Below are positions 15,004 to 57,918 of a DNA stretch of 64,000 nt, one piece after another. The stretch comes from a virus (Duplodnaviria; Heunggongvirae; Uroviricota; Caudoviricetes): the IMG/VR virus record IMGVR_UViG_3300034157_000063; one strand, written 5' to 3'. Below the pieces are notes generated by a model that saw only the letters and a program-made list of their open reading frames with translations, was not told where the DNA came from and searched no databases. Each line of letters begins with the position of its first letter. Position 1 is the first letter of the stretch. The translations under genes were made by a program, and so were the position numbers.

Positions 15004-15032
15004 TTGACCAAAGGTTAGTATTATGGTATTAT
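15004..15032 (+). promoter_or_regulatory. Sigma70-type promoter of the leader-alkB unit
   Basis: TTGACC-17 nt-TATTAT with TG extension. Confidence 0.7.
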
Positions 15033-15062
15033 AATCTCTCTCAAATAAAAGGATAAATTATC

Positions 15063-15095
15063 ATGAAACTCCAAAGTCTACGACAACGGCATTAA
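15063..15095 (+). CDS. Leader peptide MKLQSLRQRH upstream of the AlkB-like gene
   Basis: AAAGGA SD; rare CTA/CGA/CGG codons; 15064-15073 is complementary to the alkB SD region 15146-15155. Confidence 0.65.
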   Translation: MKLQSLRQRH

Positions 15096-15159
15096 ACCTA
15101 AACTTTCGTTTAATTGTATTACATTGTCTTAAATTTAACTAATTATGGAGTTTTAAAAA

Positions 15160-15711
15160 ATGAAACCTATTTATGTCGCAAATTTCGTGGCTAATCCTGA
15201 TGCTGTGTTCAAAAGATTATTGAACGAGTTAGAATGGAAAAGATACGGAAACAAACCTAGAAAAGAATACTACTGCAACGATCACGATGTGCCTTATAGT
15301 TATGGCAATCCCGAGTTTGCGGATACCTATACTAGAAGTCCTTACAGTGATGACATCTTGGATATCAGATACAAGTTGGAAGAAGAATTGAAATCTATTT
15401 TTGATGTCTGCTTTTTAAATTTGTATGATGACTTTGCCGGTCACATTGGATGGCACGCTGATGACAGTCCAGAAATGGACCCTGACAGACCTATTGTCAC
15501 TGTTAGTTTGGGTGCTGAAAGAGAAATCTGGTTTAAAGAAAGACCTTCTGAAACCAGTTCTAAGGAAGTCACTAAGATTAAGTTAGGACATGGGAGTGCT
15601 TGTATCATGCCAGCCGGTATGCAAGCTACAGACTTACACAGAATCCCTAAGAATGACAGACCTTGTGGTGAAAGGGTTAGTTTGACTTACAGAGGTTATA
15701 AGTTCATATGA
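15160..15711 (+). CDS. AlkB-family 2OG-Fe(II) dioxygenase
   Basis: IGWHADD (HxD), VSLGAER, distal H, RVSLTYR motif. Confidence 0.92.
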   Translation: MKPIYVANFVANPDAVFKRLLNELEWKRYGNKPRKEYYCNDHDVPYSYGNPEFADTYTRSPYSDDILDIRYKLEEELKSIFDVCFLNLYDDFAGHIGWHADDSPEMDPDRPIVTVSLGAEREIWFKERPSETSSKEVTKIKLGHGSACIMPAGMQATDLHRIPKNDRPCGERVSLTYRGYKFI

Positions 15712-16406
15712 CCGATTTTTTGAAGCGTGTGTTTGATGTTAAATTCACTTGTCAACACGAAGAAGATAAGTTCCTAGCGGATCTCGCTATGGAACTTATT
15801 CGTGTTCATACAGATTGTGTTGTACATGAGCTGATTTCAGTGAAAAAACATATGATTAAATTAAAAAATACACACACAGGTCTTTTTTATTTTGTTTATC
15901 TCTATAAAGTTATTGACTATACTTCTGATGGTCGATACTTCTATAAAGAGCTTTCTTTTGAATTCAACATGTTATTTACTAAACGTCTTCATCTCACCTT
16001 GTCTAATTTCTACAATTACTATTCTAGACGTTATGATGTTGGTTATTTTTCTGAATTGAGAAGTAAAGTGGTATTTTCGAATAACACACAAAGCCTTCAT
16101 TTTAGATTCATCGGTGTTGATGACCATTGCACCAAGTTTATTATTGAAGATGACAAAGTTTGTCAATATAATTATTATGACGCGGAATTAATGTCCACTC
16201 AATTATTAACATTTGCAGAATTTGAAATATTATTTAAATGTTCCATATTGCATGAACATGCTAATCATCTATTGTTGGAGTATATTCCAGAGTTTTTTGG
16301 CCCTCAACAAAAAATGCCTTCTAATGATTCATTAATTGCAAATTTAGCACTGATTGATATTTTGATGTTTACACAAGGATTGTCGGGAATTGATTACACA
16401 TTGTAG
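15708..16406 (+). CDS. Hypothetical protein
   Basis: 232 aa; ATGA overlap with alkB-like gene; C-terminus resembles an extended MxxI tail. Confidence 0.7.
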   Translation: MTDFLKRVFDVKFTCQHEEDKFLADLAMELIRVHTDCVVHELISVKKHMIKLKNTHTGLFYFVYLYKVIDYTSDGRYFYKELSFEFNMLFTKRLHLTLSNFYNYYSRRYDVGYFSELRSKVVFSNNTQSLHFRFIGVDDHCTKFIIEDDKVCQYNYYDAELMSTQLLTFAEFEILFKCSILHEHANHLLLEYIPEFFGPQQKMPSNDSLIANLALIDILMFTQGLSGIDYTL

Positions 16407-17086
16407 ATGTCAGTAAGGTTAACAATGGTAAACTCTTCGTAACAAAATGCTCCTGTATCAATGTAAAATACATTACCTAAAACTAATGGATCTCTCACAA
16501 TGGTATGACCCACATACACATAATCAATATTTCTAATTTTTGATTTATCTTTACGTTTGAGCTTAGACCTACCCCAGAGAGCTTCATCGAGAGCACGAAG
16601 TGCCTCTACGCCTTTGGTGCTTTTCAATCTAGCGTCAAATATTTTCCAGTTGTCATCAGGAACCTCGGCATGAATGATGCCAATCCTTTTATTATGGACT
16701 TCTAATTCAATCGCTGCTGGTAATGTTTCAAGTTTTAAAACAACGGCTTCTTTTTTATCATCTGATAAGTTTAAGAACCATTCACCACCATATTCATCTA
16801 AATGATTAGGGTAATCACCATAACGCCAGAAATCAATCACAATAATTTCATGGTTACCTAACACGGGATAAAACCACGGCTCATCAATTAAAGCAAACAC
16901 TGCTAATGAATCAAGTCCCTTGTTCACCAAATCACCCACAGAAAATAATCTATCTTTTTCAAAGTCGAATTTAATGAATACGAGATATTCCATTAATAAT
17001 TCGTAGGAACCATGAATATCACCAATGACAAAATCTCTACCATTCATGTTTTTACTGACTTTCCTTATATGCGGTATTAATGCCAT
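16394..17086 (-). CDS. Ser/Thr protein phosphatase (lambda NinI/PphA-like metallophosphoesterase)
   Basis: GDIHG, GDLVNKG, GNHE, GHT, IDTG motifs. Confidence 0.92.
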   Translation of the reverse strand: MALIPHIRKVSKNMNGRDFVIGDIHGSYELLMEYLVFIKFDFEKDRLFSVGDLVNKGLDSLAVFALIDEPWFYPVLGNHEIIVIDFWRYGDYPNHLDEYGGEWFLNLSDDKKEAVVLKLETLPAAIELEVHNKRIGIIHAEVPDDNWKIFDARLKSTKGVEALRALDEALWGRSKLKRKDKSKIRNIDYVYVGHTIVRDPLVLGNVFYIDTGAFCYEEFTIVNLTDIYNV

Positions 17087-17089
17087 TAT

Positions 17090-17791
17090 TTACTCCAAAT
17101 ACATTTCAAATAATTTCAACTCTCTTTTCGTTAATTTCAAAAACTCTTTACCAAACAATTCCATTGTGTGTTTTTCAGATATAACATCATTAAGACCTTT
17201 TTTAAAGTCCATTCTTTTACTGGTTGATACCGTTGTTCCGCCTAACTTTAAAATATATTTCTCAACATATTGTGAACTCAACACATGTTCGTGATCAACT
17301 TTCATTTTGACGTATGATTTATTCAAAATCGCATAATCACCTTTTTCTAACATAACAAAATCTTTATGATGTCCAAATAATTTCGCAACCAATGTAATAA
17401 AATTAGCATTAGCCGGGGTAACTTCGTGTTCACCAGCCGCTGATTGATTATAAAATGAGCGTCTAATGTAATGTCTAGGTATCGTAATGGCTAATATATC
17501 GTCAGTTAATGCCCCTAGAAACTCAACAGTGTATAAATTTCTTGAAGTTTCAATACTGTTATCTATAATGCTATTGTATAATTTCATAGTATTTGACGAA
17601 TTGAATAGCTTCCAGTAAATTTCATATCTTAATTTTCTTTCGACAAGATCAGGCACATTCTCATAATCAGCAATATCTCTTAAAAACTCATTATGATAAG
17701 TTGATAAGTCATCAATAAGAATTTGACTTCTCAATGTATGAGTTATATTTTTCATTAAGGAATCATTTAAAACTATTTTATTCAAGATCAT
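17090..17791 (-). CDS. Hypothetical protein, MxxI-tail variant
   Basis: Ends LFEMYLE; shares 'EK.T..L..K....LT' with neighbours. Confidence 0.8.
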   Translation of the reverse strand: MILNKIVLNDSLMKNITHTLRSQILIDDLSTYHNEFLRDIADYENVPDLVERKLRYEIYWKLFNSSNTMKLYNSIIDNSIETSRNLYTVEFLGALTDDILAITIPRHYIRRSFYNQSAAGEHEVTPANANFITLVAKLFGHHKDFVMLEKGDYAILNKSYVKMKVDHEHVLSSQYVEKYILKLGGTTVSTSKRMDFKKGLNDVISEKHTMELFGKEFLKLTKRELKLFEMYLE

Positions 17792-17797
17792 ATCCTT

Positions 17798-18502
17798 TCA
17801 AGTATTGTTCATTTCTAAGACTAAAATGTCAGCATATGTCAAATCTGTTAACTTTTTATTTAGTAGTGGCAACGTATATTTATTTTCAATCATCTGCACC
17901 AGTTTTTCTTCAAAATCATCTTCACCTGTTGAAGCAATCGTATGATAGTAGCCTTTCACGCCCATAGCTGTGTTAAGTCCAGTAGTATCATAGTAGGTAT
18001 ACCTCATGATGTAGTCTATATTATTATTATTATCAATTTCTATAACATCATATTTTACAACATTGTGTTGGTAATGCATCCGATTTTGATGAGCACCCTC
18101 TTTATGATTTCTAAATATTCTTTGATATAATGTTATCAGTTCATACTCAGATTCTGATATAGCTAATTGAACATTGTTGTTGTAAAAGCTTCTATCAATT
18201 AAACATTCCGGTAACTGTATCTCTGTTGTCAAAAGAACAGAGTTACCTTCAATCGGGAAAGACGTTGACGCTTTTATTATACCACAATCTGGATTGTTTT
18301 CATAGCGAAATGACACTTTTAACATATGAAATGAAAATTTAGTTGTCGTTTCCCATTCTATCTGAATACGATGCCTATCCCTTGTTAAGATTTCTAATAT
18401 TTCATCATCGTAATTACTAAAAATCAACCAATTTTCTTTCTTAAAATTACTGAAGTCTTTTATTAATGTAAACGCTGTCAACATTTCAGTATAGGATGTC
18501 AT
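17798..18502 (-). CDS. Hypothetical protein, MxxI-tail variant
   Basis: Ends VLEMNNT; paralog of 18499..19260. Confidence 0.8.
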   Translation of the reverse strand: MTSYTEMLTAFTLIKDFSNFKKENWLIFSNYDDEILEILTRDRHRIQIEWETTTKFSFHMLKVSFRYENNPDCGIIKASTSFPIEGNSVLLTTEIQLPECLIDRSFYNNNVQLAISESEYELITLYQRIFRNHKEGAHQNRMHYQHNVVKYDVIEIDNNNNIDYIMRYTYYDTTGLNTAMGVKGYYHTIASTGEDDFEEKLVQMIENKYTLPLLNKKLTDLTYADILVLEMNNT

Positions 18503-19260
18503 ATTAGCCCCATTTGGATAACAGTGATGTCATCTTCGGTTAACTCATTAATTTTTTTTGCAACCATTGGTAAAGTATATTCAGTTTCTAAAAGATACCT
18601 TAATTTTTCTGCAAATAACGCATTGGATGTGTCACTTATTTTCATAAAGTGTCTGGACATTCCCGCATTTATTTGTTTTCTAGCTAATAATTCGTATGAA
18701 ACTAGATATTGAAAATCATCACTTACGCTTATTGTATTTTTTTGTTTTATTGCATGTTTTGTATTATAGGTGATAGGTGACTTAGTATTGAATAATTTAT
18801 TGTATAGTTCAATTAATTGGTAATCTTCTTCTGTGTAAATGTTTATTGTATGTTTTTTTAAAAACGATTCTTTTAAATAAATAGCTTCGATGTCAAATTC
18901 AATGTCAACAGGTATACCATTGCTATCAATGTTCGAAGCTGTTCTAAGCTCTATTGTCTCACCTGTTTTTGGTATTGTTATTGCATAAATAAGTCCAAAA
19001 GTATCCCAACTTTGAATCCAATTGACACTCTTTTCTATTACGCATTCTTTAAGAAGTATGTCTTTTTTATTCTCAAAAAGATAATCTATATGTTCTATTT
19101 TATCGACTGGAACGATGAATTCTATTTGTTCTTTGTTTAAATGAGACAAGTTTTCAACAAAAACACCTTGATTCAGTCTAATCAAGGCTTCTTTTACTTT
19201 CTTCTCTTTTTCCACTTTTACATGATTTCCAAAATCATTAAAATTATTATATTTTCTCAT
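18499..19260 (-). CDS. Hypothetical protein, MxxI-tail family
   Basis: Ends VIQMGLI. Confidence 0.8.
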   Translation of the reverse strand: MRKYNNFNDFGNHVKVEKEKKVKEALIRLNQGVFVENLSHLNKEQIEFIVPVDKIEHIDYLFENKKDILLKECVIEKSVNWIQSWDTFGLIYAITIPKTGETIELRTASNIDSNGIPVDIEFDIEAIYLKESFLKKHTINIYTEEDYQLIELYNKLFNTKSPITYNTKHAIKQKNTISVSDDFQYLVSYELLARKQINAGMSRHFMKISDTSNALFAEKLRYLLETEYTLPMVAKKINELTEDDITVIQMGLI

Positions 19261-19361
19261 ATAAGCCTCATTTTTAAGACGGTTAACTGCTCATTTTCAA
19301 ACAACATTAATCTCCAATCATTTTCAGTTAATATTGAAAGGTCATATATCAATTTCTTCAT
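19257..19361 (-). CDS. 34-aa mini-protein consisting mostly of the MxxI tail (possibly a frameshifted 42-aa gene starting at 19386)
   Basis: MKKLIYDLSILTENDWRLMLFENEQLTVLKMRLI; stop overlaps next start (ATGA); fills the gap in the operon. Confidence 0.55.
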   Translation of the reverse strand: MKKLIYDLSILTENDWRLMLFENEQLTVLKMRLI

Positions 19362-19394
19362 GTGTTAATGGTTGTTTTCTGTTCATAATATAGC

Positions 19395-19937: not shown

Positions 19938-19938
19938 C

Positions 19939-21855: not shown

Positions 21856-21963
21856 TTAATTCTCCTTAATAATTCCCATGATTATACCTGTAACAATTGA
21901 AAAAATCAATTGACTTTTGAATAATATTTCTGTTATTCTATGTGCTATTATAGGAGAAGTTAT

Positions 21964-22467: not shown

Positions 22468-22480
22468 TGAATGATTGTTA

Positions 22481-27018: not shown

Positions 27019-27048
27019 TTGACATAATAAGCTTTTTGATGTTATTAT
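27019..27048 (+). promoter_or_regulatory. Sigma70-type promoter of the AlaRS-like unit
   Basis: TTGACA-18 nt-TATTAT with TG extension. Confidence 0.7.
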
Positions 27049-27081
27049 GTTATAGACAACTTTTATAAATAGGAGGAAGCT

Positions 27082-27105
27082 ATGTCACAGCTAAACGCAA
27101 TCTAA
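27082..27105 (+). CDS. Leader ORF MSQLNAI (zero-frame start of the AlaRS-like gene)
   Basis: Perfect AGGAGG SD 5 nt before ATG; ATG TCA CAG CTA AAC GCA ATC TAA. Confidence 0.7.
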   Translation: MSQLNAI

Positions 27106-27980
27106 TTATCGAAACATACAAAGACCATTCCAGATTATATGAATTGGACTTTCATATAAATTCATCTGTCAAAAGTCCTGACGATACAACTCTGTTTACC
27201 ACATCTGGTATGCAACAATTTAAACCCTTATATTCTAATCTAGAATACACCAACACATTTACCAACATCCAGCAATGTCTAAGAATTAATGATCTAGACG
27301 AAATAGGCGATGGCACACACTTTTTAAAATTTGAAATGATAGGTTTATTTTCATTTAGACAATGGACACTTAAACAAGCTATTGATTTCATGTATTCCTT
27401 TGTTAACAAGCTGGGTATTATTCCAGACTATGTAACTATTCACCCTGATAAATATGAAGACTGGAAAGACCTTTATTCTGAATATGGCGTTGAAATACGT
27501 TTAGATCCTGAATGTGTCTGGTCAGATGGTAGTATTGGTGGATATTGCACAGAGTTTTACAAGAACGATGTTGAGATAGGGAATATTGTGAATACAATGG
27601 ATACTTGCATAGATGTGGGTTTTGGACTTGAAAGACTGCTTGAAGTGACTGGAAGCTTAAGACCGAAAAGTAAGCTTCAAATCCTTGAAGAAACTGCTTT
27701 ATTATTGATAGACGATGGTGTATTACTTGGTCACAATAAGAAAGAATACATTTTGAAAAAACTAATCACTGAATCTATTTTTCATGGTAGTCAAATAAGT
27801 AATGAATTTTTTGATCGAATTCGTTTCAATCAAGAAAAAGCTTATTCTACTTATATGAGGAAAAGAAACCATAAACGCTTTAAAGATAAAGATTCCATTT
27901 TCTGGATGGATACCTATGGTTTTAATATTAGTCGAATGGATGAATATGTATCAGTGTTTGGAAAAAAAGAAGACTCGTAA
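27082..27980 (+). CDS. Alanyl-tRNA synthetase-like protein, catalytic core only (no editing or C-Ala domain); probably expressed by -1 frameshift from the leader
   Basis: DDTTLFTTSGMQQFK, QQCLRINDL...HFLKFEMIGLFSF, YCTEFY, VEIGNIV, IDVGFGLERL match class II AlaRS motifs 1-3. The frame is open upstream of TTG 27144 back to 27069. Confidence 0.88.
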
Positions 27981-27992
27981 GAGTCTTTTTTT
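27966..27992. terminator. Bidirectional terminator
   Basis: AAGACTC-gtaa-GAGTCTT flanked by A and T tracts. Confidence 0.8.
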
Positions 27993-28006
27993 ATTTTAAA
28001 CTTTTC

Positions 28007-32112: not shown

Positions 32113-32171
32113 ATTGTTTAAACATTTAAAATATGATATAATTAACCAAATTTAAATTGAGGAAATTATTC

Positions 32172-32963
32172 ATGAATGACGTTATATTGAAAAAAGACGT
32201 GATTATTGATCAGCACTTTGGTGAACTTATTTTTATTGAATACGAAAATAAAATCATCAATAGTCTTGTGTTCGATTATTTTGGTGAGTCTGTATCAATT
32301 GATTATTTTAGTCAATCTATCTTAGAACATAATATTTTAGATGTGAAAGGGTTTATTCGTTGTGATAACATCCGTATCCCCTTTAAATTTTGTGGCGATA
32401 TGACAAGTAATAAAGGTCATTCAATGGATATTTCTTTGTATTATGATGTGGTTTATTCTCGTGACAAAGATTTTAAAGATGATAATTATTACAATATCAA
32501 TACACCGATTAAAAATGTTTTACGTGAACAGGTTGAAGATTACACTCAAAAATTAATTGCTTGTTTACCCAGTAAACATTCAAAAGATTTTACTGACGTG
32601 CTCTCTTTTCTATATTTTTATCCCCACATAGACAAAAAAAATGGAAAGACGTTAAAAGTTTTTATTGATATGAATAGAAAAAGTATTATTTATTTCATTA
32701 ATCATTATCAAAGTACATCCACTAGATTTAATTCTAATTTATCATTTTTTTACGATGGTGAAACCTTTTCACTTAATTCATCAAATTTTACCAGTGTTGA
32801 TGTTAGTGATGTGACGATTGAAGATTGTTGGAAACATTTGATTACTCGTCACTTTAGATATTCAAATATTTATAGCTTTATCAACAGCAGTTATACATCC
32901 CTTAATGAGCTTATGGCTCATATAGATGAAGCTTTTTTAGTTTTTGAAATGGATAATATTTAG
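32172..32963 (+). CDS. Hypothetical protein, MxxI-tail family
   Basis: ATG 32172 after GAGG; ends VFEMDNI. Confidence 0.8.
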   Translation: MNDVILKKDVIIDQHFGELIFIEYENKIINSLVFDYFGESVSIDYFSQSILEHNILDVKGFIRCDNIRIPFKFCGDMTSNKGHSMDISLYYDVVYSRDKDFKDDNYYNINTPIKNVLREQVEDYTQKLIACLPSKHSKDFTDVLSFLYFYPHIDKKNGKTLKVFIDMNRKSIIYFINHYQSTSTRFNSNLSFFYDGETFSLNSSNFTSVDVSDVTIEDCWKHLITRHFRYSNIYSFINSSYTSLNELMAHIDEAFLVFEMDNI

Positions 32964-33021
32964 TTGAATTTTGGTATTATAATGTGGTATAATAGGTCAA
33001 ATGAAAAAAAGGAGTTACACC

Positions 33022-33672
33022 ATGAAAACTATTCAATATGTTGTGAATAAAGAAAAAGCTAAGGTTGCCTCATTTGATGTTGACCCTCAAAAAAGCTTCA
33101 CTCCACTGTTTCCAGATGAATTGCCGGTAGCAGGCGGTCACCTGATTGCTGCTGCACTTAACGCACAAGCTGAACTGGCTGGTTTTCGTGTAGGTTCAAA
33201 AGATATTCATGCTACCAATGCTTATTGGGTAGCCGATGAAAAGAACCCCCAATTCAGCCCAGTGGCTCCACAGTTTCTTGATATGGATATTCACTGGAAA
33301 GCTCACTGTATTCTTGGCACAGAAGGTGTTGAGTTCTTGGATGAACTCCCAAAGGCCGATAAGTATGATTTTATGGTCTATAAAGGTATTGAGCGACATA
33401 TGCACCCTTATGGTGCTTGCTATCATGACCTCGGCAACAAAAAAACTACGGGTGTGATTGAAGTTCTTCGTGCTAATGGCATTGAACTTGTTCTGGTAGG
33501 TGGTCTTGCGACTGACTATTGTGTTAAGAACACCGCAATCCAGTTAAAACTCGCCGGTTTTGATGTGGTGGTTAACTTGTCAGCCTGTCGTCATATTGCT
33601 GATGAAACCTTGGATATTGCTATCAAAGAAATGATTGAGCATGGTATTGTGGTTGCTGATACTGTCGCTTAA
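33022..33672 (+). CDS. pncA: Nicotinamidase (isochorismatase family)
   Basis: DVDPQKSF, SKDIH, WKAHC, VYKG, GLATDYCV; ATG 33022 after AAGGAG. Confidence 0.88.
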   Translation: MKTIQYVVNKEKAKVASFDVDPQKSFTPLFPDELPVAGGHLIAAALNAQAELAGFRVGSKDIHATNAYWVADEKNPQFSPVAPQFLDMDIHWKAHCILGTEGVEFLDELPKADKYDFMVYKGIERHMHPYGACYHDLGNKKTTGVIEVLRANGIELVLVGGLATDYCVKNTAIQLKLAGFDVVVNLSACRHIADETLDIAIKEMIEHGIVVADTVA

Positions 33673-33690
33673 TCGGTTTATCCAGTAAAT

Positions 33691-33720
33691 GAAGCCATGA
33701 CTTTTGTTGTGGCTTTTTTT
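33691..33720 (+). terminator. Intrinsic terminator
   Basis: AAGCCATGAC-tttt-GTTGTGGCTT followed by T-tract. Confidence 0.7.
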
Positions 33721-33774
33721 GTTTACAGCATTAAGGTGTTGTGCTATAATTGTTCAAATTTTAGGAGAGATAAC

Positions 33775-34620
33775 ATGAATACGATTGATTTTGTGCAACA
33801 AGGAAATAAGCGTAAGAAAGCCTTTGTTGTAGATACCTTTGCTCGTAAAGTGCTTAATGACATTTTTCCTGTTATCAACGATCTTTCTAATAATGATATT
33901 CATGTTATCAATTATGTTGTTTTTCGTGGTAAACGTCTCATTGATGTTATTGTTCGTTATAAAGATCTTTGCTTGCCTATGGCTCTTGATTTCTCCATTG
34001 ACAGTGATTTAGATTGCACATACATTAAAGGCTACAGGGCTATTTATAAGTTTAATATTTCTATTGTTAATGACCGATTCCAAAGTATTCTGTTTGATGA
34101 CAATCGTGAAGATAACTTCAACGTTGAAACACTTAAAGAATTTTTAGGGGATGACGCGGAACGTTTTAGCATTCTGTATGACAGTTATTACAATAAATAT
34201 AACTCACCCATGCAGTATAAGCAGCATGTATTGAAAGCCACCGCTCCTGATGCTAAACCAACATCTGATATTTCTTTTGATTGTGAGTTTCAATACATGA
34301 GCGATACATCAGGATTCTTTTTTAATATTTATAGCAATGGTATTGAATATAAGAAGAATGTAGCGAGAGTGGAAGAACTGTGTTATCAATTGAAACCAAT
34401 GGAAGGCACTATCTCGGGTAAGTTCACCAGTATTGATTTTTGGTCAACTATTAAAGAAAACCCTTCTATGATTTCTGAACCTTTTAGGGTTGCCATTCAG
34501 AAACATTACAATGTGGATGATTATGTTATTCCTCATTTTGATTCTCATATTGAATTGTTTGATTTTTACAATGAAGAAAAAATACGAATTAAGGAAATCA
34601 GTGAAATGATAAAAATTTAA
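33775..34620 (+). CDS. Hypothetical protein, MxxI-tail family
   Basis: ATG 33775 after AGGAG; ends ISEMIKI. Confidence 0.8.
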   Translation: MNTIDFVQQGNKRKKAFVVDTFARKVLNDIFPVINDLSNNDIHVINYVVFRGKRLIDVIVRYKDLCLPMALDFSIDSDLDCTYIKGYRAIYKFNISIVNDRFQSILFDDNREDNFNVETLKEFLGDDAERFSILYDSYYNKYNSPMQYKQHVLKATAPDAKPTSDISFDCEFQYMSDTSGFFFNIYSNGIEYKKNVARVEELCYQLKPMEGTISGKFTSIDFWSTIKENPSMISEPFRVAIQKHYNVDDYVIPHFDSHIELFDFYNEEKIRIKEISEMIKI

Positions 34621-34643
34621 AACTATTAATCAGGAGTTTAATC

Positions 34644-35447
34644 ATGCGTCGTAGTCATTTTAAACATTTCTTTGAAACCTATTTCAATTATCCTTATGAA
34701 AAACTTGAATTATGGGACGCTGATTGCGTGCGTAAAGAAATTGCTACTTCGTATGAGTGTACGCTGGATGAAGTCGATTGTTTCTTTCTTTTTAGTAACC
34801 CATTGACTTACCGCTATAAAGAAATACAGCACTATGGATTTTATAGGATAAAAAATTCAGATTTTTACGTTCCTTTTTTTGCTCATTGCTCGCCATCATT
34901 GGTTACGGCTCATGTTGAAATGAAATTTAATTATGACATTAACAATTCTGTATTTGATTTTCGTCACGTTCCTCTTAAAAAAGAGAGAACACGGGAATTT
35001 TATGAATTGACTATGGAGAATATTCAACCATTTATAAGAAATATTCTCAGCAGATCTGGTTTGTTGGTACTGGATGAACAGTTTAAGAAAAGTTCTATTT
35101 ACTTTGATTTTGATTTTTCTTATTTTACGTTGGAAGTGGCTCATAGAGGTCATAATTTCAATGAATCCTTTGCGATTACTTATAAAAACAATCTAGATAA
35201 CGATGTGACTGATGCTTTTTTTCATTGTCGTTATTATCTTCGATATTGCCTCAACAAAAAAGTAGAAAATCTTCAGGTTAGTAGCAGTAATATTAACTTG
35301 AATAATTTATTGTTCAATAAAGATGAAATGTTGCATCAATCTTTCAGTGGTATGAATGATTTTGGTTGTTTTGAGTATACGACCATTGATGAGTTGGATA
35401 CGCTTGTCAAAGAATATAGAAAGGTAGAAAAGATGTATATTATTTAA
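34644..35447 (+). CDS. Hypothetical protein, MxxI-tail family; close paralog of next ORF
   Basis: Ends YTTIDELDTLVKEYRKVEKMYII. Confidence 0.85.
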   Translation: MRRSHFKHFFETYFNYPYEKLELWDADCVRKEIATSYECTLDEVDCFFLFSNPLTYRYKEIQHYGFYRIKNSDFYVPFFAHCSPSLVTAHVEMKFNYDINNSVFDFRHVPLKKERTREFYELTMENIQPFIRNILSRSGLLVLDEQFKKSSIYFDFDFSYFTLEVAHRGHNFNESFAITYKNNLDNDVTDAFFHCRYYLRYCLNKKVENLQVSSSNINLNNLLFNKDEMLHQSFSGMNDFGCFEYTTIDELDTLVKEYRKVEKMYII

Positions 35448-35459
35448 GTGGAGTCAATA

Positions 35460-36275
35460 ATGGAAAGTTTACATTTTAAATCTTACTTTGAACAATATTT
35501 TAACTACAATTATGATAAATTGAAATTTTATCAATCGGATCGTGTTCATGAGATTATCGCAAAATCTTACAATTGTTCGATGTCGGATGTAGAGTGTGTA
35601 TTCGTCCATCAGAAAATATTACCACAAATTCAAACTGATCTGGAATATCAAGACGAAGAAGAACAAACTTATGAGTTCTATGAAAGTCAGCTTTATGGTT
35701 TCTATCGAGTTCATCAATCTGATTTCTATATTCCTTTCTTTTCCTACTTGAATGACAAATATGTGTTACCACGTATTGAGTTAGTCTTTAATTATCAGAT
35801 TAACAATTCTGTGTTCGATTGTTTTCATTTACCACTTAAAAAAGAAAAAACACCTGAGTTTTATAAGTCTATTATTGCTAACTTAAATCCAATGGTTACC
35901 AAGGCTATCCAAACATCTGGCATTATGGTTTTAAATGAACCGCTTAGAAAAAGTAGTATTCATATTGATTTATATCTATCTCAGGTCGATTTAGCCAATA
36001 AAGGTACTCAATTTAAAGAAACGTTATCTTTTTGTTTTGGTGCTTCGTATGACGATATGTTGTTTTTCCATTATGACCTTAGATATTGTATCAATAATCA
36101 AATGGAACACCTTTTTGTTAGAGCCAACAATATGGCTGATTTTAATAAAGAAACGTTTCTTCGACATTCTTTTAAGTGTATAGACATTTTTTGTGATTTT
36201 AACTACACCACGATTGATGAACTTGATGTTCTGGTTAAGAAATATCGTCAAGTCGAAAAAATGTACACTATTTAG
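35460..36275 (+). CDS. Hypothetical protein, MxxI-tail family; tandem duplicate
   Basis: ATG 35460 after GGAG; ends YTTIDELDVLVKKYRQVEKMYTI. Confidence 0.85.
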   Translation: MESLHFKSYFEQYFNYNYDKLKFYQSDRVHEIIAKSYNCSMSDVECVFVHQKILPQIQTDLEYQDEEEQTYEFYESQLYGFYRVHQSDFYIPFFSYLNDKYVLPRIELVFNYQINNSVFDCFHLPLKKEKTPEFYKSIIANLNPMVTKAIQTSGIMVLNEPLRKSSIHIDLYLSQVDLANKGTQFKETLSFCFGASYDDMLFFHYDLRYCINNQMEHLFVRANNMADFNKETFLRHSFKCIDIFCDFNYTTIDELDVLVKKYRQVEKMYTI

Positions 36276-36334: not shown

Positions 36335-37168
36335 ATGGTAGACCAAACTCTGCAACAACTTACGCTAGGCGAACGTATGAAAGCCTACGAAGATAAAGAA
36401 ACAAAACTTCGCTTTGATCGTACTCAACCTGTTTATGCTCGTATTGATGGCCGGTCTTTTAGTAAATTTACTAAGGGCATGAAAAAGCCTTTCGATGAAA
36501 AGCTCTCAATGGCAATGATTGAAGTCACTAAGTATCTTGTGAAAGAAACAGGTGCAACTGTGGGCTACACTCAATCCGACGAAATCAGTCTTGCTTGGTA
36601 TGGCAGCGATACACGTTCAAATATTTTCTTTGATGGACGGATTCAAAAAATGGTCAGTAACGTAGCCTCAATTGCGACTGCTAAGTTTATGGTCTACGCT
36701 CTTCAACATTGGGGCGAAAAGTGCCTTCAAAAGCTTCCTACGTTTGATTGCCGCATTATCAACATGCCCAACTTCTCAGAAGTGTCTAACATGTTTATGT
36801 GGCGATCAATGGACGCTTACAAGAACTCAATCAGTATGGCAGCAATGGCTGAATTCAGTCACAAGCAACTGACGGGTGTTAACGGTGCTGATAAAATTGA
36901 AATGATGATGAAGAAAGGTGTAGACTTTAATGCACTCCCTAACTTCTTTAAGTATGGTACTTTTGTCCGTAACGAATCATTCTTTATCACTGCGAAAGAA
37001 GCTAACATTCCAGAACAGTTCTTGAATGAAGAAAACTCCAAAGGTTTCATGCGTCGTCGTGTTGTAGAAGTTGACCTTGGAAACTTTGTTGATGTTGCTA
37101 ACAAAGTTGCGTTCATCTTCAACGGTGCTGAACCGGAGTTTAAGATTGATAATGCCATTCTTGTTTGA
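36335..37168 (+). CDS. tRNA(His) guanylyltransferase Thg1-like 3'-5' polymerase
   Basis: RMKAYE, RIDGRSFSKFT, KPFD, YTQSDEISL, FDGRIQK, FDCR, WRSMDAYKNS motifs. Confidence 0.93.
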   Translation: MVDQTLQQLTLGERMKAYEDKETKLRFDRTQPVYARIDGRSFSKFTKGMKKPFDEKLSMAMIEVTKYLVKETGATVGYTQSDEISLAWYGSDTRSNIFFDGRIQKMVSNVASIATAKFMVYALQHWGEKCLQKLPTFDCRIINMPNFSEVSNMFMWRSMDAYKNSISMAAMAEFSHKQLTGVNGADKIEMMMKKGVDFNALPNFFKYGTFVRNESFFITAKEANIPEQFLNEENSKGFMRRRVVEVDLGNFVDVANKVAFIFNGAEPEFKIDNAILV

Positions 37169-47474: not shown

Positions 47475-49151
47475 TTATTTATTTTCAACCGTCATCTTTG
47501 ATAAACATGGATAGGTTTCAATACCTAAGATATTACAGCCTTTCTCAATGACATCCTTCACTGCCGCGATCAAACATAATTTCTTATACTCTTCTTCATG
47601 TCCCAATATTTTTTCACTTTCGTAATATTTGTGGAATAAAGTACATAAGCTGACTAGTTGAGTGGTTAAATAATGACTTTGATACTCAGTACTCATTTCA
47701 TTGATAATCTCTTGAGTTTTCAAAATATTAAAGAATAAAGCATTTTCCTGATTATTTAAAATCAGATCATCAGTGATGGTCAATTTAGGTTCATTCATAT
47801 TGTATTTCTTAAACAAAATTGAATCAATCCGCACATAAGCATTTTGAAGATAAGGAGCTGAACCACCAGAAAAGTTTAAGACATGTTTCCAGTCAAACAC
47901 ATAATCTTGATGCTTGCTTAATTTTAAATCATGAAATTTAAGACCACCTACAATCGTTTTATTCAACAACTCAGTTTGTGTCTCACCTGAAAGCTTTGTA
48001 AAGTGTGGAGACTTTAATAATTCATTTTTACCTTCCATTAACAAATCATCCAAATACAATGATTTTCCTGTTTTTGTTTTGATAGGTTTGTTATCTTCAC
48101 CTAAGATGGTACCGAAACCCAAATGGATAAGCTTATTTTTATCGGTTGCATAACCTACTTTTTTAGCAATCATGAAGATTGTTTCAAAATGCAGTGACTG
48201 CCGTTTATCAACCACATACACTATTTTATCTGGGTTATGTTGTTCTACCCGCCATTTGATAGCCGCTAAATCATAGAGAGCATACAAAAAGGTGCCATTC
48301 GTTTTTTTGATGACCAGCTTGTTATTTTCAAGTTGAACATACACCGAACCATTCTCATCAACACTGGCAATTTGTTTATTGATTAAGTCCACAACGATTT
48401 CATGACAGAACTGAGCAAAGAAGCTTTCACCTTTGGTATCCGCAATGGTCAATTTGAGCTTAAATTCTTTAATTGTAGATTCTAGGTCAATCAAACTAAT
48501 ATCGACACATTTTTGCCATAATGCTAGCAATTCATCATCAAGTTTATTTTGAAGCTTGTACGCAACATTATCAGATTCAAGTGCAAATGAATTATCATCA
48601 CTTTCTTTGGATAGGTTATAGGCAGTATAGGCGAGCTTATAATACTCAGTGAGCTTTTGATTGTCCAAGTTGTTTGCTAAATCATTCTTCATAATGTAAT
48701 TGAGTAGGAAACCAAACTGATTGCCCCAATCACCAACATGATTATATGAAATAACTTCATCACCCATGTTCTGATGGCTCCGAACAACAAAGTCGCCAAT
48801 AAACATAGACCGTATATGACCGATGTGCATTTTTTTTGCAACGTTAACACCACAGTAATCGACCACCACTGTTTCTTTTGGTTTTGTTTGCACTGTTTGT
48901 GCATTCATTAAATTCATTTTGAAAGACAAAAAAGCCTTACCCGTAATTTCAATGTTTTCGTAATGAGTTGTTTTCAATAAATAAGCAATCAAGCTGGCTG
49001 TGTCAAAGTCGCCTTTTTTATTTAATTGAAAAAGAATAGATGTTTGATAATGAAAATTTTCAAAACTTGAATACGATACATCAACCGTTAACGTGATGTT
49101 TTTTGATGTCAGATAATTTTGGATATCCGATTTAATAATGGACTTGTACAT
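47475..49151 (-). CDS. argS: Arginyl-tRNA synthetase
   Basis: VVVDY...NVAKKMHIGHIRS (HIGH), NHVGDWGNQFG, YVVDKRQSLHF, KTKTG, PYLQNAYVRI (DALR domain); 558 aa. Confidence 0.95.
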   Translation of the reverse strand: MYKSIIKSDIQNYLTSKNITLTVDVSYSSFENFHYQTSILFQLNKKGDFDTASLIAYLLKTTHYENIEITGKAFLSFKMNLMNAQTVQTKPKETVVVDYCGVNVAKKMHIGHIRSMFIGDFVVRSHQNMGDEVISYNHVGDWGNQFGFLLNYIMKNDLANNLDNQKLTEYYKLAYTAYNLSKESDDNSFALESDNVAYKLQNKLDDELLALWQKCVDISLIDLESTIKEFKLKLTIADTKGESFFAQFCHEIVVDLINKQIASVDENGSVYVQLENNKLVIKKTNGTFLYALYDLAAIKWRVEQHNPDKIVYVVDKRQSLHFETIFMIAKKVGYATDKNKLIHLGFGTILGEDNKPIKTKTGKSLYLDDLLMEGKNELLKSPHFTKLSGETQTELLNKTIVGGLKFHDLKLSKHQDYVFDWKHVLNFSGGSAPYLQNAYVRIDSILFKKYNMNEPKLTITDDLILNNQENALFFNILKTQEIINEMSTEYQSHYLTTQLVSLCTLFHKYYESEKILGHEEEYKKLCLIAAVKDVIEKGCNILGIETYPCLSKMTVENK

Positions 49152-49205
49152 ATTGAAGCTCCTTTTAATTATATAAAAAATAGTAATGGTTAATTTTTGA
49201 TTTAA

Positions 49206-49235
49206 TTAAAGTCGTCTCAATAGTTTAGTGTTCAT
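49206..49235 (-). CDS. Leader peptide MNTKLLRRL upstream of argS
   Basis: GGAG SD; ATG AAC ACT AAA CTA TTG AGA CGA CTT TAA; lies between promoter and argS. Confidence 0.75.
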   Translation of the reverse strand: MNTKLLRRL

Positions 49236-49259: not shown

Positions 49260-49289
49260 ATATTAACATAAATAACCCAATGATGTCAA
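49260..49289 (-). promoter_or_regulatory. Sigma70-type promoter of leader-argS
   Basis: TTGACA-18 nt-TAATAT with TG extension. Confidence 0.7.
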
Positions 49290-50386: not shown

Positions 50387-50521
50387 ACACCTAATTTATT
50401 ATATTCTTTTTTCAATTATAGCATAGTATTAAAATATACATAGTGTATTGTTCTATATTTATATAATAATGGTTGAACATAAAGATGAAATTATGCTATA
50501 ATTTAGCATTCAGGAGGGCTT

Positions 50522-52164: not shown

Positions 52165-52283
52165 GATAAACTCCTTTTTAAATATCACTATTTTTACATT
52201 GATTTTTAATTAGTCAATTAAAACGATTGTCATTTTGGCGGAAATTTGATATAATTAGGCATATTTAATTATGAGGACATTTT

Positions 52284-53060: not shown

Positions 53061-53104
53061 TCATGAATATCAAGCCATTCAGTAAAAAGAATAGGATGTT
53101 TTAA

Positions 53105-53950: not shown

Positions 53951-53956
53951 CAGGCA

Positions 53957-53988
53957 CAAAAAAAGGACTCGAAAGTCCTTTTTTTTTT
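53957..53988. terminator. Bidirectional terminator
   Basis: AAAAAAAGGACT-cgaa-AGTCCTTTTTTT. Confidence 0.85.
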
Positions 53989-53993
53989 CTTTG

Positions 53994-54335
53994 TTATTGG
54001 TTGATTTCATTTCGTTCCAAGAGTGTCCAAAAAGTTGTCTCACCGACTTTAACTTCACGGACAAGCCAATCTTCAGAACCAATAGCATTCTTTGTCCAAT
54101 ATTCTTTAACATTGACTTTATCAGTCAGTGATAGACGCAGTGTAGTATAAGGTTCTTTCATGATGCTATTGGTATACCAAGGCGTTTTGTATTGAGCCGA
54201 AGTGATCTCTTGAAACGATATAAAGTCCTTAATGGCTATAATAGACGTAAAGATCAATAGGGCTACACCGATAAGAGTAAGTGTATTTTTAAATTCAGTT
54301 TTAAAACTCATAGCAACACTTTCATTCGCAGTCAT
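53994..54335 (-). CDS. Single-TM hypothetical protein
   Basis: N-terminal TM segment; GGAG SD. Confidence 0.75.
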   Translation of the reverse strand: MTANESVAMSFKTEFKNTLTLIGVALLIFTSIIAIKDFISFQEITSAQYKTPWYTNSIMKEPYTTLRLSLTDKVNVKEYWTKNAIGSEDWLVREVKVGETTFWTLLERNEINQ

Positions 54336-54493
54336 AAAAAAATCTCCATGTCATTTAATTAACATTATTATATCAAAAAATCAGTCTATAATCAATCATT
54401 ACATGGCTTTAAATGGTCTTTTTTATTTCTATTTTTCATTGACTAAATGTTGAAAATTTGCTATCATTTATTAATATTTATAGGAGTTATACA

Positions 54494-56071
54494 ATGTCCA
54501 ATATTTCAACCGAAGAGTGTAAAGATTTCCTTATCTCAAAATTTCCACACAGTAAACGTGCTCTTTGGAAACGTGAACGAAAATATAAAAATGACGCGGG
54601 TGATTGGTGTCGTGATTTTAGCAACCCCGATGTCGGTAATGTTTCACTGGTTGAAGTTAATGGCGTATTAGGCTTCTTTAAAAAGGCGGCAGCAACTACG
54701 TCCACCAGCACAACACAAACACAACAGTCAGCACCTGCACCTAAAATTGAATTAGGCACCCATGATATCTTTGTCAAAACATTTAGTAAAGATGACGTTG
54801 AACTGGCTAGTGATCTGGTTGATCATTTTGTCAGCACTTATAATGAACCTCGTTCGACGGCGAAAGGTTTCTTTGCAATACCTTCACAATTTACTTATTC
54901 CTTCACTGATATGGAGAATGATGAATCAGGCCGTATGTCCAGAGCTAATCGTAATTTGGATATCAATGCGAAGTTTGAAACATTTAGTCTCTATTTAACG
55001 CCAATTGAGCATGATGATTACGATCAACATTTGCAACCACTATTGCAACAATTTTTCCCACGTAACTCTGGTGAAGAAATGGAATGTGTGTTTGGTTTTT
55101 ATTATGACAACCCTATATCCATTAAAGATTTCGTGATCATGATGGCGAAACAAGGGTTTAAATATGAATTTGACCGTGATGATCGTTATGATGACCGTTG
55201 CTTGTTTAAAGACGTAATGAGAACTTTTAATTTTGTTGAAGGTCAGACGATTGAAGAAGCTTTCAAACCAGTTGTCTCATCGACATCAACTCAGTCAACA
55301 AAGGAGCAAGATAGTGTTTCGGTAGCCAAACCGAAGTTGGTAACGACAATTGATTTGTTCTGTAACATTGTTAAAGATGACAATGCGGTTGCTCTGGAAG
55401 AAGCTATTGCTGATGGGCTTGATTTGTGTTTTATGATTAACCGTATTTCAATGCACTCTTATTGCTTGAATAATGATTTACATGAATGCTTTAAAGTGTT
55501 GGTTCAACATACTCCTAATTTGGCTGTTGGTCACAATGGAGAGGCGAATACTGTATGGCGTGATGCTATTTTGTTTAATGATGAGAGTTCATTCAATTAC
55601 ATTCAATACCTTCTTGAACATGCAAACTATGACTTCACAAAAGAAAGTTACCTTGCAAACGCAGCATGTGTCTATTTCCTTCATTCAGTTGATAAGCTTG
55701 AAGAGAAATTTGATAAACTTAATGAAATGTATGCAGCCTGTATTTGTTATGCTAACGCTATTTCAAATGAAGATTTCTATAACAGTGATTTTGTCAAAAC
55801 ACAAGTGAGAAAAGCGTTATTTGATTATGCTGACTTCTCTAATGCTGATATGAACGTTGCGATTGCACTGACGAATGATGTTATTATTTCAGAAGTCTTA
55901 GATGTCATGATTGAGAAAGGTGATGTCTGTATTGCTGGTAAGACGCTTCGTGTCTACTTGACAATGGTTGTTGACCGCTTCAAACATGGTTTCTGGGGTT
56001 ATGATGAAATCGAACGTAAAGACAATATTGTTTATTATGAAAATGCATTGAAAAAAATTGCGGGACTTTAA
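54494..56071 (+). CDS. Multi-domain hypothetical protein with S/T-rich linkers and a helical-repeat (ankyrin-like?) C-half
   Basis: ATG 54494 after AGGAG; AATTSTSTTQTQQSAPAP and SSTSTQST linkers. Confidence 0.75.
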   Translation: MSNISTEECKDFLISKFPHSKRALWKRERKYKNDAGDWCRDFSNPDVGNVSLVEVNGVLGFFKKAAATTSTSTTQTQQSAPAPKIELGTHDIFVKTFSKDDVELASDLVDHFVSTYNEPRSTAKGFFAIPSQFTYSFTDMENDESGRMSRANRNLDINAKFETFSLYLTPIEHDDYDQHLQPLLQQFFPRNSGEEMECVFGFYYDNPISIKDFVIMMAKQGFKYEFDRDDRYDDRCLFKDVMRTFNFVEGQTIEEAFKPVVSSTSTQSTKEQDSVSVAKPKLVTTIDLFCNIVKDDNAVALEEAIADGLDLCFMINRISMHSYCLNNDLHECFKVLVQHTPNLAVGHNGEANTVWRDAILFNDESSFNYIQYLLEHANYDFTKESYLANAACVYFLHSVDKLEEKFDKLNEMYAACICYANAISNEDFYNSDFVKTQVRKALFDYADFSNADMNVAIALTNDVIISEVLDVMIEKGDVCIAGKTLRVYLTMVVDRFKHGFWGYDEIERKDNIVYYENALKKIAGL

Positions 56072-56080
56072 CTATTACAT

Positions 56081-56102
56081 TAACCCACTTCGGTGGGTTT
56101 TA
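56081..56102 (+). terminator. Intrinsic terminator
   Basis: AACCCAC-ttcg-GTGGGTTTT. Confidence 0.85.
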
Positions 56103-56170
56103 TATTAAAAAAATGGAGTATAGAAATGACTGTCATTTGAAAATGCAGTTATTTCATAAACAACTTATCG

Positions 56171-56199
56171 TTGATTGTGGTATTAAAATATGCTATAAT
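56171..56199 (+). promoter_or_regulatory. Sigma70-type promoter
   Basis: TTGATT-17 nt-TATAAT with TG extension. Confidence 0.75.
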
Positions 56200-56230
56200 T
56201 AACCAAATTTTAACCCTTTAAGGTAAATAA

Positions 56231-57133
56231 ATGACTCATTTAAAAGAATTGTACCCAACCATTGACCCCAAGTATCAGATTGTTTATAAAAATGAACGTT
56301 CATTATTGGGTAAATCAGAAGATCTGCACTATTTGATTAATAAAGCTGATAATGCCGTTGTTGTGATGGACAGCAATAAACATCCTAACCATATGGGGAT
56401 TTTTGTTTTCAGAGATAATCTCTTGGTTAACAGTTTTAATGTGAAGCACCTTTTTATTAGTCAGCATACTAGCTATACCCCAGAAGGCATTGAACAAGAG
56501 CGTTGGAAAATGTATGTTGAATTTCTCGAACCTTATTATTCAAATGATTGTGCTATCCAGTTAGGCACTGTTATTAATGATCAAGTGAATCATTTTATGA
56601 AAAGCGTAGCATATTATAAAGTGCATATTAATTTTGTCCAAGAACATGGTCAACAAGTTTTAAATAATATTGAAATTGAAGATAAAGTCTATAATTTTAA
56701 GTATAAAGCCATTGTTCGTGATGGACTTGTTTACTTTACAATGATGTTTAACGACGACCCAGACCAAGAAGAATTTGTTAAAGGTAAGTTTAATCTGCAG
56801 GACTATACGCATTATGAGTCAGCCGGTGGTTATGTGATTGATTCTTTTGCAGGTGACTGGTTTATTGCTGAGACACACTATGATCCTTATTTGAAGCTTT
56901 ATCAATACAAAACTGTTCGTTATGAGGATTCAAAAGTACTAAAAGACAGCGACCTACTGAAAGACTATCAGGAGTATGATGTTAACTTTATTTTCAATTT
57001 TATCTATGATAGTGTGATTATTCATCATCCAAAACACAGTTTTATTGAAAAGCTAGTTGAATTGTCTATTTTGAGTGATGGTGAAAAATTGACCCATGAA
57101 CACATGAATATTTATGCTATGGCAACCATTTAG
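56231..57133 (+). CDS. Hypothetical protein, MxxI-tail family
   Basis: Ends IYAMATI. Confidence 0.8.
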   Translation: MTHLKELYPTIDPKYQIVYKNERSLLGKSEDLHYLINKADNAVVVMDSNKHPNHMGIFVFRDNLLVNSFNVKHLFISQHTSYTPEGIEQERWKMYVEFLEPYYSNDCAIQLGTVINDQVNHFMKSVAYYKVHINFVQEHGQQVLNNIEIEDKVYNFKYKAIVRDGLVYFTMMFNDDPDQEEFVKGKFNLQDYTHYESAGGYVIDSFAGDWFIAETHYDPYLKLYQYKTVRYEDSKVLKDSDLLKDYQEYDVNFIFNFIYDSVIIHHPKHSFIEKLVELSILSDGEKLTHEHMNIYAMATI

Positions 57134-57160
57134 GTTGCTTTTTTACACAAATTTTAGGTA

Positions 57161-57190
57161 TAAAAAAAGCCACATCTCTGTGGCTTATTT
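57161..57190 (-). terminator. Terminator between convergent genes
   Basis: AAGCCACA-tctc-TGTGGCTT with an A-tract on the + strand. Confidence 0.75.
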
Positions 57191-57796
57191 GTATTGTGTG
57201 TTACGGTGTCTTTTCCAATTTCTGATACGCCAGTCGCTTCTTCCTTCGTCATCCCATGCAGTAGTGATAACACCTTTTGGTCTGCGATTTTTGACGTTGA
57301 ATTCAATTTCATCTTCATCAACTTCGCTGGTAGCATCTTTAAGCAAGGAAAGCGTTTGTGGTTTTCTGCGATAGCGGTAACGTCCGCGTTTCCCAGTATG
57401 AGGCACAGCACCTTCACCATTCCAAAACTGTTTACCGTAACCGATGTAAGTTTTTTCTTTCTTTTCTTTGAAAACAAACTCAGCAAAGTCAAGCACAGAA
57501 AGCTGTTCGTTGTATTCATTTTTGAGGATGAAATCACCGTATACTTTCATTTCGCCATAACGGTTAAGCTTTTTGTAAAGCTCACCGTAAGTTTGTCCCA
57601 ATCCTTCGTGTTTCTTTTTGGCAAAGCGACGGTTGGCATAACCATCCCAAATTTTGTCACGATCAGGGGACGCAAGTTCCACTGCTAACGAGTAGACAAT
57701 GAAGTTGTATCCCAACTTGTTAAATGCTTCTGCCTTATTTTGGTAGGTATTAACGATACCTTCCTTGTTGATAAGGTAAATAACTTCTGTTTTCAT
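57185..57796 (-). CDS. Basic protein with C-terminal WDD...RNWKxxRxxQY motif (putative RNA/ribosome-binding)
   Basis: GAVPHTGKRGRYRYRRKPQT and TAWDDEGRSDWRIRNWKRHRNTQYK; AGGAG SD. Confidence 0.8.
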   Translation of the reverse strand: MKTEVIYLINKEGIVNTYQNKAEAFNKLGYNFIVYSLAVELASPDRDKIWDGYANRRFAKKKHEGLGQTYGELYKKLNRYGEMKVYGDFILKNEYNEQLSVLDFAEFVFKEKKEKTYIGYGKQFWNGEGAVPHTGKRGRYRYRRKPQTLSLLKDATSEVDEDEIEFNVKNRRPKGVITTAWDDEGRSDWRIRNWKRHRNTQYK

Positions 57797-57817
57797 AAAG
57801 ACTCCTATTAAGTTTCC

Positions 57818-57862
57818 TTAATATTTGTCTACGATCACCTTTAATTCGTATTTGAAAAACAT
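57818..57862 (-). CDS. Leader peptide MFFKYELKVIVDKY
   Basis: GAGG SD; its stop codon lies within a GAAA-capped hairpin that also covers the downstream SD. Confidence 0.7.
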   Translation of the reverse strand: MFFKYELKVIVDKY

Positions 57863-57889
57863 AATGTGCTTCCTCTTTAATATGTTGCC

Positions 57890-57918
57890 ATTATAACTGT
57901 TTTGATGATAACAATCAA
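57890..57918 (-). promoter_or_regulatory. Sigma70-type promoter of the leader/203-aa unit
   Basis: TTGATT-17 nt-TATAAT. Confidence 0.75.

Follow-up and report, generated by a model that had tools for sequence, protein, structure and literature searches.

The window analysed here, a stretch of 64,000 nucleotides (nt) from the IMG/VR virus record IMGVR_UViG_3300034157_000063, carries genes for a compact alanyl-tRNA synthetase (AlaRS, gene alaS), an arginyl-tRNA synthetase (ArgRS, argS), an AlkB-family dioxygenase (alkB) and a basic protein here called WDD, each with a short open reading frame (ORF) upstream that has a Shine-Dalgarno (SD) sequence of its own. We think it probable that the two synthetases are backup enzymes for times when their own charged tRNA runs short, with alaS expressed by way of a -1 ribosomal frameshift and argS by unmasking of its SD sequence, and that the alkB and WDD leaders are ribosome-coupled switches. 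That the alaS and argS switches sense the cognate charged tRNA is well supported by sequence comparison, from which their anatomy, conservation and cognate-codon specificity, as well as the purging of the enzymes' own amino acids, can be read directly.

The original prediction had treated the four short ORFs as one set of codon-sensing leaders in front of translation and RNA-repair genes. All four exist where it had placed them (Table 1); they are 10 (alkB), 7 (alaS), 9 (argS) and 14 (WDD) codons long and lie 24-34 nt 3' of a sigma-70-like promoter that matches 10-11 of 12 consensus bases. A blind scan for ATG-initiated ORFs of 5-35 codons with an SD sequence in free intergenic space, applied to the 46 genes with at least 60 nt free upstream, returned precisely these four (4/46 genes, compared with 1.2 +/- 1.1 in shuffles; p ~0.05). 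By itself the count is marginal, and the case rests on conservation: as the prediction implied, all four short ORFs are kept in orthologues. The set is therefore real in its members but not of one kind, the alaS ORF appearing to be the start of the gene. Between leader and gene no intrinsic terminator of the trp/his type was found at any of the four window loci. Complementarity between leader and downstream SD, claimed for three of the four, agrees with the folding of argS, alkB and WDD, where pairing with the SD/AUG region is predicted with z-scores of -1.6 to -4.8 in eight of nine folds and -0.25 in the ninth.

The divided start of alaS

The AlaRS frame of the window is open from 27069, relatives align from its first residues, and the N-terminal helix encoded upstream of the called TTG start (27144) is modelled with a predicted local distance difference test score (pLDDT) of 95 (88.8 for the whole model, whose best fold matches are all AlaRS catalytic fragments). 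No in-frame ATG is found for this AlaRS in the window: the sole ATG with an SD sequence (27082) sits in the +1 frame, and the zero frame that it opens ends two codons past A_AAC_GCA. Since the frame is open, homology and a helix extend upstream, no hairpin covers the SD sequence and the sole SD-led ATG lies in the +1 frame, we take the short ORF to be the beginning of alaS itself and no separate leader. The leader-peptide attenuation originally proposed appears to be the wrong mechanism for alaS, which reads as a -1 frameshift cassette. The predicted trans-frame product is about 299 amino acids (aa) long, with 3 Ala in its body and a class II catalytic core bearing AlaRS motifs (PF01411, E 2e-20). 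Editing and C-Ala domains are not present, the ORF ending at 27980 with a terminator-like hairpin next to it.

Two other candidates for alaS were rejected: a hairpin hiding the SD sequence (fold z +1.4) and transcriptional slippage (there is no homopolymer run). A 7-base backward hop of tRNA-Ala to an upstream GCN was considered as well; four GTG-started cassette lineages lack that GCN.

How might such a gene be read? Ribosomes would initiate at the strong SD-ATG. Imagine that Ala-tRNA is plentiful: the Ala codon would be read and translation would terminate two codons on. If Ala-tRNA were scarce, the A site would stay empty, the peptidyl-tRNA would slip one base back (from AAC to AAA) and the -1 codon CGC would be read. 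The product of the shift would be a nearly Ala-free AlaRS, closing a feedback loop like that of prfB. Here as in argS, it is the slippage, the stalls, the direction of regulation, the activity of the enzyme and its purpose that we infer.

To place the window in context, some 220 AlaRS loci were collected (metagenomes, viral contigs and GTDB genomes) and grouped into 68 lineages by clustering at 80% identity. The cassette, in which a start codon is followed after a few codons by a slip-compatible tetramer and then an Ala codon, is present in 47 of 47 lineages without an in-frame ATG, in identical register throughout, and in 1 of 21 with one (Fisher p 3e-16, relatedness ignored); 20 lineages have a plain in-frame ATG and are cassette-free, and one has both. 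Where there is an in-frame ATG, it mostly lies about 36 codons ahead of the GMQ motif, the point at which the shift enters the frame. Among the 48 cassette lineages the tetramer is G_GAC in 30, A_AAC in 16 and G_GAA and G_GTC in one each (G_GTC re-pairs poorly). The A-site codon is an Ala codon in all 48 (GCA 28, GCC 18, GCG 1, GCT 1), with only the wobble base varying, whereas the -1 codon is variable (AGC in L054). Counted by register, the motif occurs 44 times in the correct one versus 0 and 1 in the others.

Cassette carriers include the terminase-bearing huge phages G005, G006 and LR745206 as well as bacterial genomes of Rhizobium, Inquilinus and Phyllobacterium. The AlaRS protein is encoded in 85 Rhizobium plasmid records, and the cassette was confirmed directly in R. 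etli CFN42 (RHE_RS22135). A quick tree suggests about six gains or losses of the cassette (6 label changes, of which at least 3 are forced), with the frame-restored allele L048 nested beside the shifted L068. The enzymes are also poor in the amino acid that they charge: the Ala content of AlaRS is below that of its neighbours in 56 of 57 loci, and the Ala share is 0.35% in low-GC cassette genes, 1.8% in in-frame genes and 8.9% in the corresponding part of ordinary AlaRS. Note that 54 of 120 called proteins of the family start at or near an internal Met; many AlaRS-family annotations begin at the wrong codon.

Two further observations concern the alaS region. A variant of the cassette has a GTG start immediately before the Asp-Ala codons, nine bases after a strong SD sequence (L053, L078, L097, L130), and in L004 a tRNA-like sequence without an anticodon arm lies immediately upstream of the cassette.

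An independent check is provided by thrS. A huge-phage thrS without an in-frame start has a short first frame with G_GGA_ACG, and a homologue of 74% identity has G_GAG_ACA. Both cassettes need a -1 shift with a Thr codon at the A site, and neither enzyme contains any Thr. Because the thrS cassettes carry a Thr codon in place of Ala, the codon at the shift site appears to follow the amino acid of the enzyme encoded, Ala for alaS and Thr for thrS.

The argS leader and synthetases purged of their own amino acid

The argS leader is kept in four orthologues (87, 74, 66 and 66% protein identity) and missing in two distinct loci at 53-56%. In all five loci that have it, the window included, it contains Leu-Arg-Arg (TTR AGA CGA), starts at -84 to -80 and stops at -54 to -50. 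The cognate codons that the original prediction had pointed out in the two synthetase leaders are thus conserved, Arg-Arg for argS and the Ala codon for alaS. A hairpin over the argS SD region is predicted in 5/5 loci (z -0.25 to -4.8), and in the folding model, masking the bases that would lie beneath a ribosome at AGA releases the argS SD sequence in 5/5. A ribosome stalled on the Arg-Arg codons would melt the hairpin over the ribosome-binding site, and synthesis of ArgRS would then require just five Arg, all CGG. As no terminator was found at the argS leader, this control appears to resemble ermC/cat unmasking. A macrolide-type arrest motif, tried as an explanation for Arg-rich leaders, was rejected, being not conserved in all orthologues.

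The composition of ArgRS is as unusual as that of AlaRS. Of its 558 residues only 5 are Arg (the window average is 3.2%), every one encoded by CGG, a codon that makes up less than 4% of Arg codons in the window; given window codon usage, the chance of an all-CGG gene is about 7e-8 for one gene. All-CGG argS is found in five loci (the window and four homologues), and the median Arg count in 112 ArgRS homologues is 5. In E. coli under Arg limitation, CGA is among the most sensitive Arg codons and CGG among the least.

The same design, a purged synthetase with a cognate sensor, is met again in related elements and in huge phages, where it covers about ten types of synthetase. Together with the conserved cognate codons and the purged enzymes themselves, this recurrence supports, for both synthetases, the sensing of specific charged tRNAs that had been proposed for the leaders. 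The 437-kb relative G001 encodes a TrpRS with zero Trp, a ThrRS of 386 aa with zero Thr and no editing domain behind a seven-Thr leader and terminator, a classical attenuator (G001:208838-210170 (-), L280), and a TyrRS (243050-244309, L304) with 2 Tyr, whose 15-codon leader ends in Arg-Tyr (CGA TAT) before the stop. In the huge phages G006 and LR745206, AspRS has 0 Asp, AsnRS 0-1 Asn, HisRS 0 His, IleRS 0 Ile in 735-742 aa and ValRS 0 Val; G006 further has TyrRS with 0 Tyr, TrpRS with 0 Trp and LysRS with 1 Lys, and LR745206 has a GlyRS with a single Gly. Several huge-phage synthetases are preceded by a leader with a run of cognate codons and a terminator (Table 1), and huge-phage ValRS and LeuRS are only 420-510 aa long, about half the usual length. 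Enzymes of up to 740 residues without their own amino acid point to selection for being translated while that charged tRNA is lacking, a possible reason for the many synthetases of huge phages; for each synthetase, one would then expect a host defence or toxin that blocks it. A synthetase that would be induced when its own product runs short, and that hardly uses the amino acid it charges, is most readily understood as a rescue enzyme.

Downstream of TyrRS, at about 259-260 kb, G001 carries four tRNA-Ser and two tRNA-Tyr genes.

Table 1. Positions of the proposed switches, their genes and comparable elements elsewhere (window coordinates unless another record is given)
Feature	Position	Strand	Basis
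Sigma-70-like promoter of alkB leader	15004..15032	+	10/12 match
alkB leader ORF, 10 codons, core CTA CGA CAA (Leu-Arg-Gln)	15063..15095	+	conservation
AlkB-family 2-oxoglutarate-Fe(II) dioxygenase, 183 aa	15160..15711	+	PF13532 E 9e-20; phrog_21963 E 2e-65
Sigma-70-like promoter of alaS	27019..27048	+	11/12 match
SD and zero-frame ORF1 of alaS, ATG 27082, stop 27103-27105 (originally called a leader)	27071..27105	+	sequence
Proposed -1 shift site A_AAC_GCA; P-site Asn re-pairs at AAA, Ala codon in A site	27093..27099	+	conservation
-1 frame: compact AlaRS, catalytic and tRNA-recognition fragment	27096..27980	+	PF01411, alignment, model
Hairpin and T run after alaS, terminator-like	27970..27993	+	sequence
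ArgRS, 558 aa	47475..49151	-	PF00750 and PF05746
Long hairpin, leader Arg codons to argS SD/AUG region	49150..49224	-	folding model
argS leader ORF, 9 codons, TTG AGA CGA (Leu-Arg-Arg) at 49220-49212	49206..49235	-	sequence, conservation
Sigma-70-like promoter of argS leader	49260..49289	-	10/12 match
WDD protein, basic, 203 aa, unnamed family, conserved WDD..R..NWK tail	57185..57796	-	183 relatives
WDD leader, 14 codons, conserved at peptide level	57818..57862	-	conservation, fold
Sigma-70-like promoter of WDD leader	57890..57918	-	10/12 match
Huge-phage thrS with -1 cassette at Thr codon	L279 (G006 ~322100); L311:440-475
Asp, Asn, His, Ile, Val and Leu synthetases with a cognate-codon leader and a terminator upstream, most free of own amino acid	L284, L285, L288, L292, L293, L294, L297, L299, L301

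Rival readings, known systems and purpose

Could alaS be expressed without any frameshift? If ribosomes terminated at the zero-frame stop and reinitiated at a near-cognate codon overlapping it (CTG in Rhizobium, ATT in the window), the AlaRS frame would be translated all the same. We consider this improbable. An NTG does overlap the stop in 16 of 48 cassettes (CTG over TGA in 15 alphaproteobacterial-type lineages, TTG in one), RefSeq annotates the R. etli gene from that CTG and the window has ATT after its stop, all of which weighs against a frameshift. However, NTG arises automatically from TGA, and TTA, CTA, GTA or ATA stands at that place in 32 of 48 lineages. The stop, moreover, falls anywhere from 0 to 8 codons past the shift site, in places within the conserved first helix, and reinitiation leaves both the slip-compatible tetramer and the match of Ala with alaS and Thr with thrS unexplained. 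Crucially, stalling for want of Ala-tRNA would then reduce expression instead of increasing it, which is the wrong direction. That alaS is a pseudogene or its break a sequencing error, with leaders that are no more than chance ORFs, is hardly conceivable. The number of SD-led short ORFs is barely above that in shuffles, but the same frame break at the same place in 48 lineages, spanning 42-100% identity and 25-69% GC, finished genomes included and catalytic motifs intact, refutes it.

Other observations also sit uneasily with frameshifting at alaS and unmasking at argS. A G-C pair 7 bases before the Ala codon (window 27090-27091) is invariant in 44 lineages, and simple slippage does not explain it. 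Of the covarying anti-SD pairs that the original prediction would lead one to expect, the argS pairing itself is predicted in all five loci, but the consensus fold of the five leaders is weak, with 2 compensatory pairs. L245 has an Arg leader but CGT in the gene body, which weakens a simple isoacceptor model. Purged synthetases without a visible sensor exist (L246, L255, L291, L307), and SerRS is not purged; nor are AspRS and ThrRS of G005.

For alkB and WDD, a plainer account is that the leaders provide constitutive translational coupling or encode small proteins, and sense no stress. No cognate-codon logic is visible in either, the 14-residue peptide of the WDD leader is itself conserved, and a ribosome at its codon 9 or beyond opens the hairpin. 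Against this, the Arg-Gln core of the alkB leader in L248-L254 is followed by a terminator with an alternative partner for pairing, as in a classical attenuator, and such leaders occur in just 4 of 46 genes, three of which act on translation or nucleic-acid repair. We regard this account as rather unlikely. The two leaders look like SD-unmasking, ribosome-coupled switches, and our best guess for their trigger is general stalling.

Several known systems resemble those proposed here. In thrL, hisL and pheM/pheST, cognate codons in a leader control attenuation; ermC and cat are controlled by SD unmasking, and a leader controls the antibiotic-resistant TrpRS of Streptomyces. What they share with the present systems is a short leader carrying cognate codons, together with alternative hairpins, and the thrS of G001 and the huge-phage Asp, Asn, His, Ile, Val and Leu leaders have the textbook layout. 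Here, in contrast, such control is found on giant mobile elements and phages, before minimal purged synthetases, and argS would unmask its SD sequence without a terminator. The gene for release factor 2, prfB, has a short first frame, with an A-site codon that depends on its own product, and hence feedback control. The alaS cassette shares these three traits, but prfB shifts +1 at a stop codon, whereas alaS would shift -1 at a sense codon and sense aminoacyl-tRNA.

A mechanical precedent is the leftward frameshifting at hungry codons described by Gallant, a single peptidyl-tRNA slip on a slippery tetramer beside a slow A-site codon (reviewed in PMC5009743, cited in PMC10861913). It is known from starved reporter constructs, whereas the alaS version appears to be conserved and gene-specific. 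A 2016 review stated that there were no known examples of starvation-specific trans-frame proteins made by such shifting (PMC5009743), and a literature search that covered little subscription content found no later description of such regulation. If true, our reading would supply what was then stated to be unknown, natural and conserved hungry-codon frameshifting used for regulation. Huge phages carry as many as 15 synthetases per genome, and these differ from the host's (PMC7162821); LR745206, of that phage collection, carries the alaS cassette. In its passages on synthetases that paper proposes the charging of phage tRNAs and mentions neither regulation nor purging; the word 'attenuation' is not used. 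With known AlaRS catalytic fragments and paralogues (PDB 3hxu, 1riq, 9jc7) the compact AlaRS shares the class II fold, motifs 1-3 and the segments that recognise the acceptor stem, but it is only about 290 aa long and lacks the editing and C-Ala domains. An auxiliary AlaRS has no entry in a review table (PMC9437257).

What are backup synthetases for? Most likely, they come to the rescue when charging by the host fails, be it through synthetase-poisoning toxins, antibiotics or starvation. A counter-defence role is inferred: tentatively, and with somewhat less than even confidence, we suggest a self-rescuing charging system on giant elements and huge phages, with a hungry-codon -1 sensor in alaS and thrS, that would restore translation after the host disables synthetases during infection. 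PrrC-like defences, which cut tRNAs, would not be cured by a synthetase alone. Alternatively, the switches may work as proposed and serve plain amino-acid starvation, keeping tRNAs charged, possibly by near-cognate fill-in, and damping the stringent response, with no counter-defence involved. We see this as a real possibility, though we would not bet on it. AlaRS and ThrRS lack editing domains (a loss that may leave room for deliberate mischarging) and ValRS and LeuRS are reduced to half length; classical leader attenuation senses starvation; and on Rhizobium plasmids the alaS cassette is located among metabolic genes. Yet a spare synthetase would presumably be of little use if the amino acid itself were absent, the active-site motifs are those of a true AlaRS, and the breadth of purged huge-phage synthetases is just as compatible with their standing in for host enzymes that have been disabled.

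The alkB and WDD leaders and the surrounding element

In the alkB leader, the core Arg/Gln-Gln (CGA/CAA CAA) is kept in orthologues of 63-70% identity (L248-L254, L250, L390); the leader is absent in L388, and none was detected at some 70 distant alkB genes of viruses. Folding predicts pairing between the 5' end of the leader and the SD sequence of alkB. There are two layouts: the window, L250 and L390 have SD pairing, and L248-L254 a terminator together with an alternative partner for pairing. The WDD leader is found in 3/3 orthologues (43-66%), always 14 codons long, with Phe3, Lys8, Val9, Asp12 and Lys13 kept and the peptide conserved through synonymous changes. Its last codons and stop form a predicted hairpin round the downstream SD sequence, which L392 rebuilds from different bases. 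The WDD protein matches no Pfam or PHROG family, and its Atlas feature scores are below 0.8. A fold search gave a best Z of 3.1 and Atlas template-modelling scores (TM) below 0.3 by query, from which no claim of a new fold follows. From its basic tail and its leader, we would guess at a ribosome-related role.

The window itself has 32% GC, dense coding, sigma-70-like promoters, SD sites and many orphan paralogues. A tRNA search of it found none, and an Rfam scan at the gathering score returned zero matches to a T-box or other cis-element. The nearest relatives of the element are syntenic contigs of 0.44-1.86 Mb, among them G001, which IMG/VR classes as viral and which may be a fragment of an element of 1.5-1.9 Mb. 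Since neither a terminase nor a sheath was found in these 437 kb, we use the name giant mobile element for it rather than phage. Both argS and alkB are missing from G001 and four other records, and viral scans with single-protein queries for argS and for WDD gave zero matches.

A few features of the window and its relatives stand apart from the switches. A Thg1-like gene (tRNA-His guanylyltransferase) at 36335-37168 has no leader ORF. At 4255-5985 a DNA methyltransferase gene precedes an unassigned gene for 310 aa, with which it may form a restriction-modification pair; the syntenic part of G001 does not have them. The 1.86-Mb relative has a TnpB/IS605-type insertion (L012:5395-6774) where the corresponding window site is empty. 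Among the tRNA calls of G001, one has the anticodon CUA (amber) and another an anticodon of four bases (L274:15947-16020, L275:9162-9237). Finally, many unrelated-looking orphan proteins of 200-310 aa throughout the window end in a Met-x-x-Ile-like motif (examples at 46-684, 686-1387, 10665-12632, 32157-36275 and 58621-60236), possibly a shared signal or the mark of a paralogue family.

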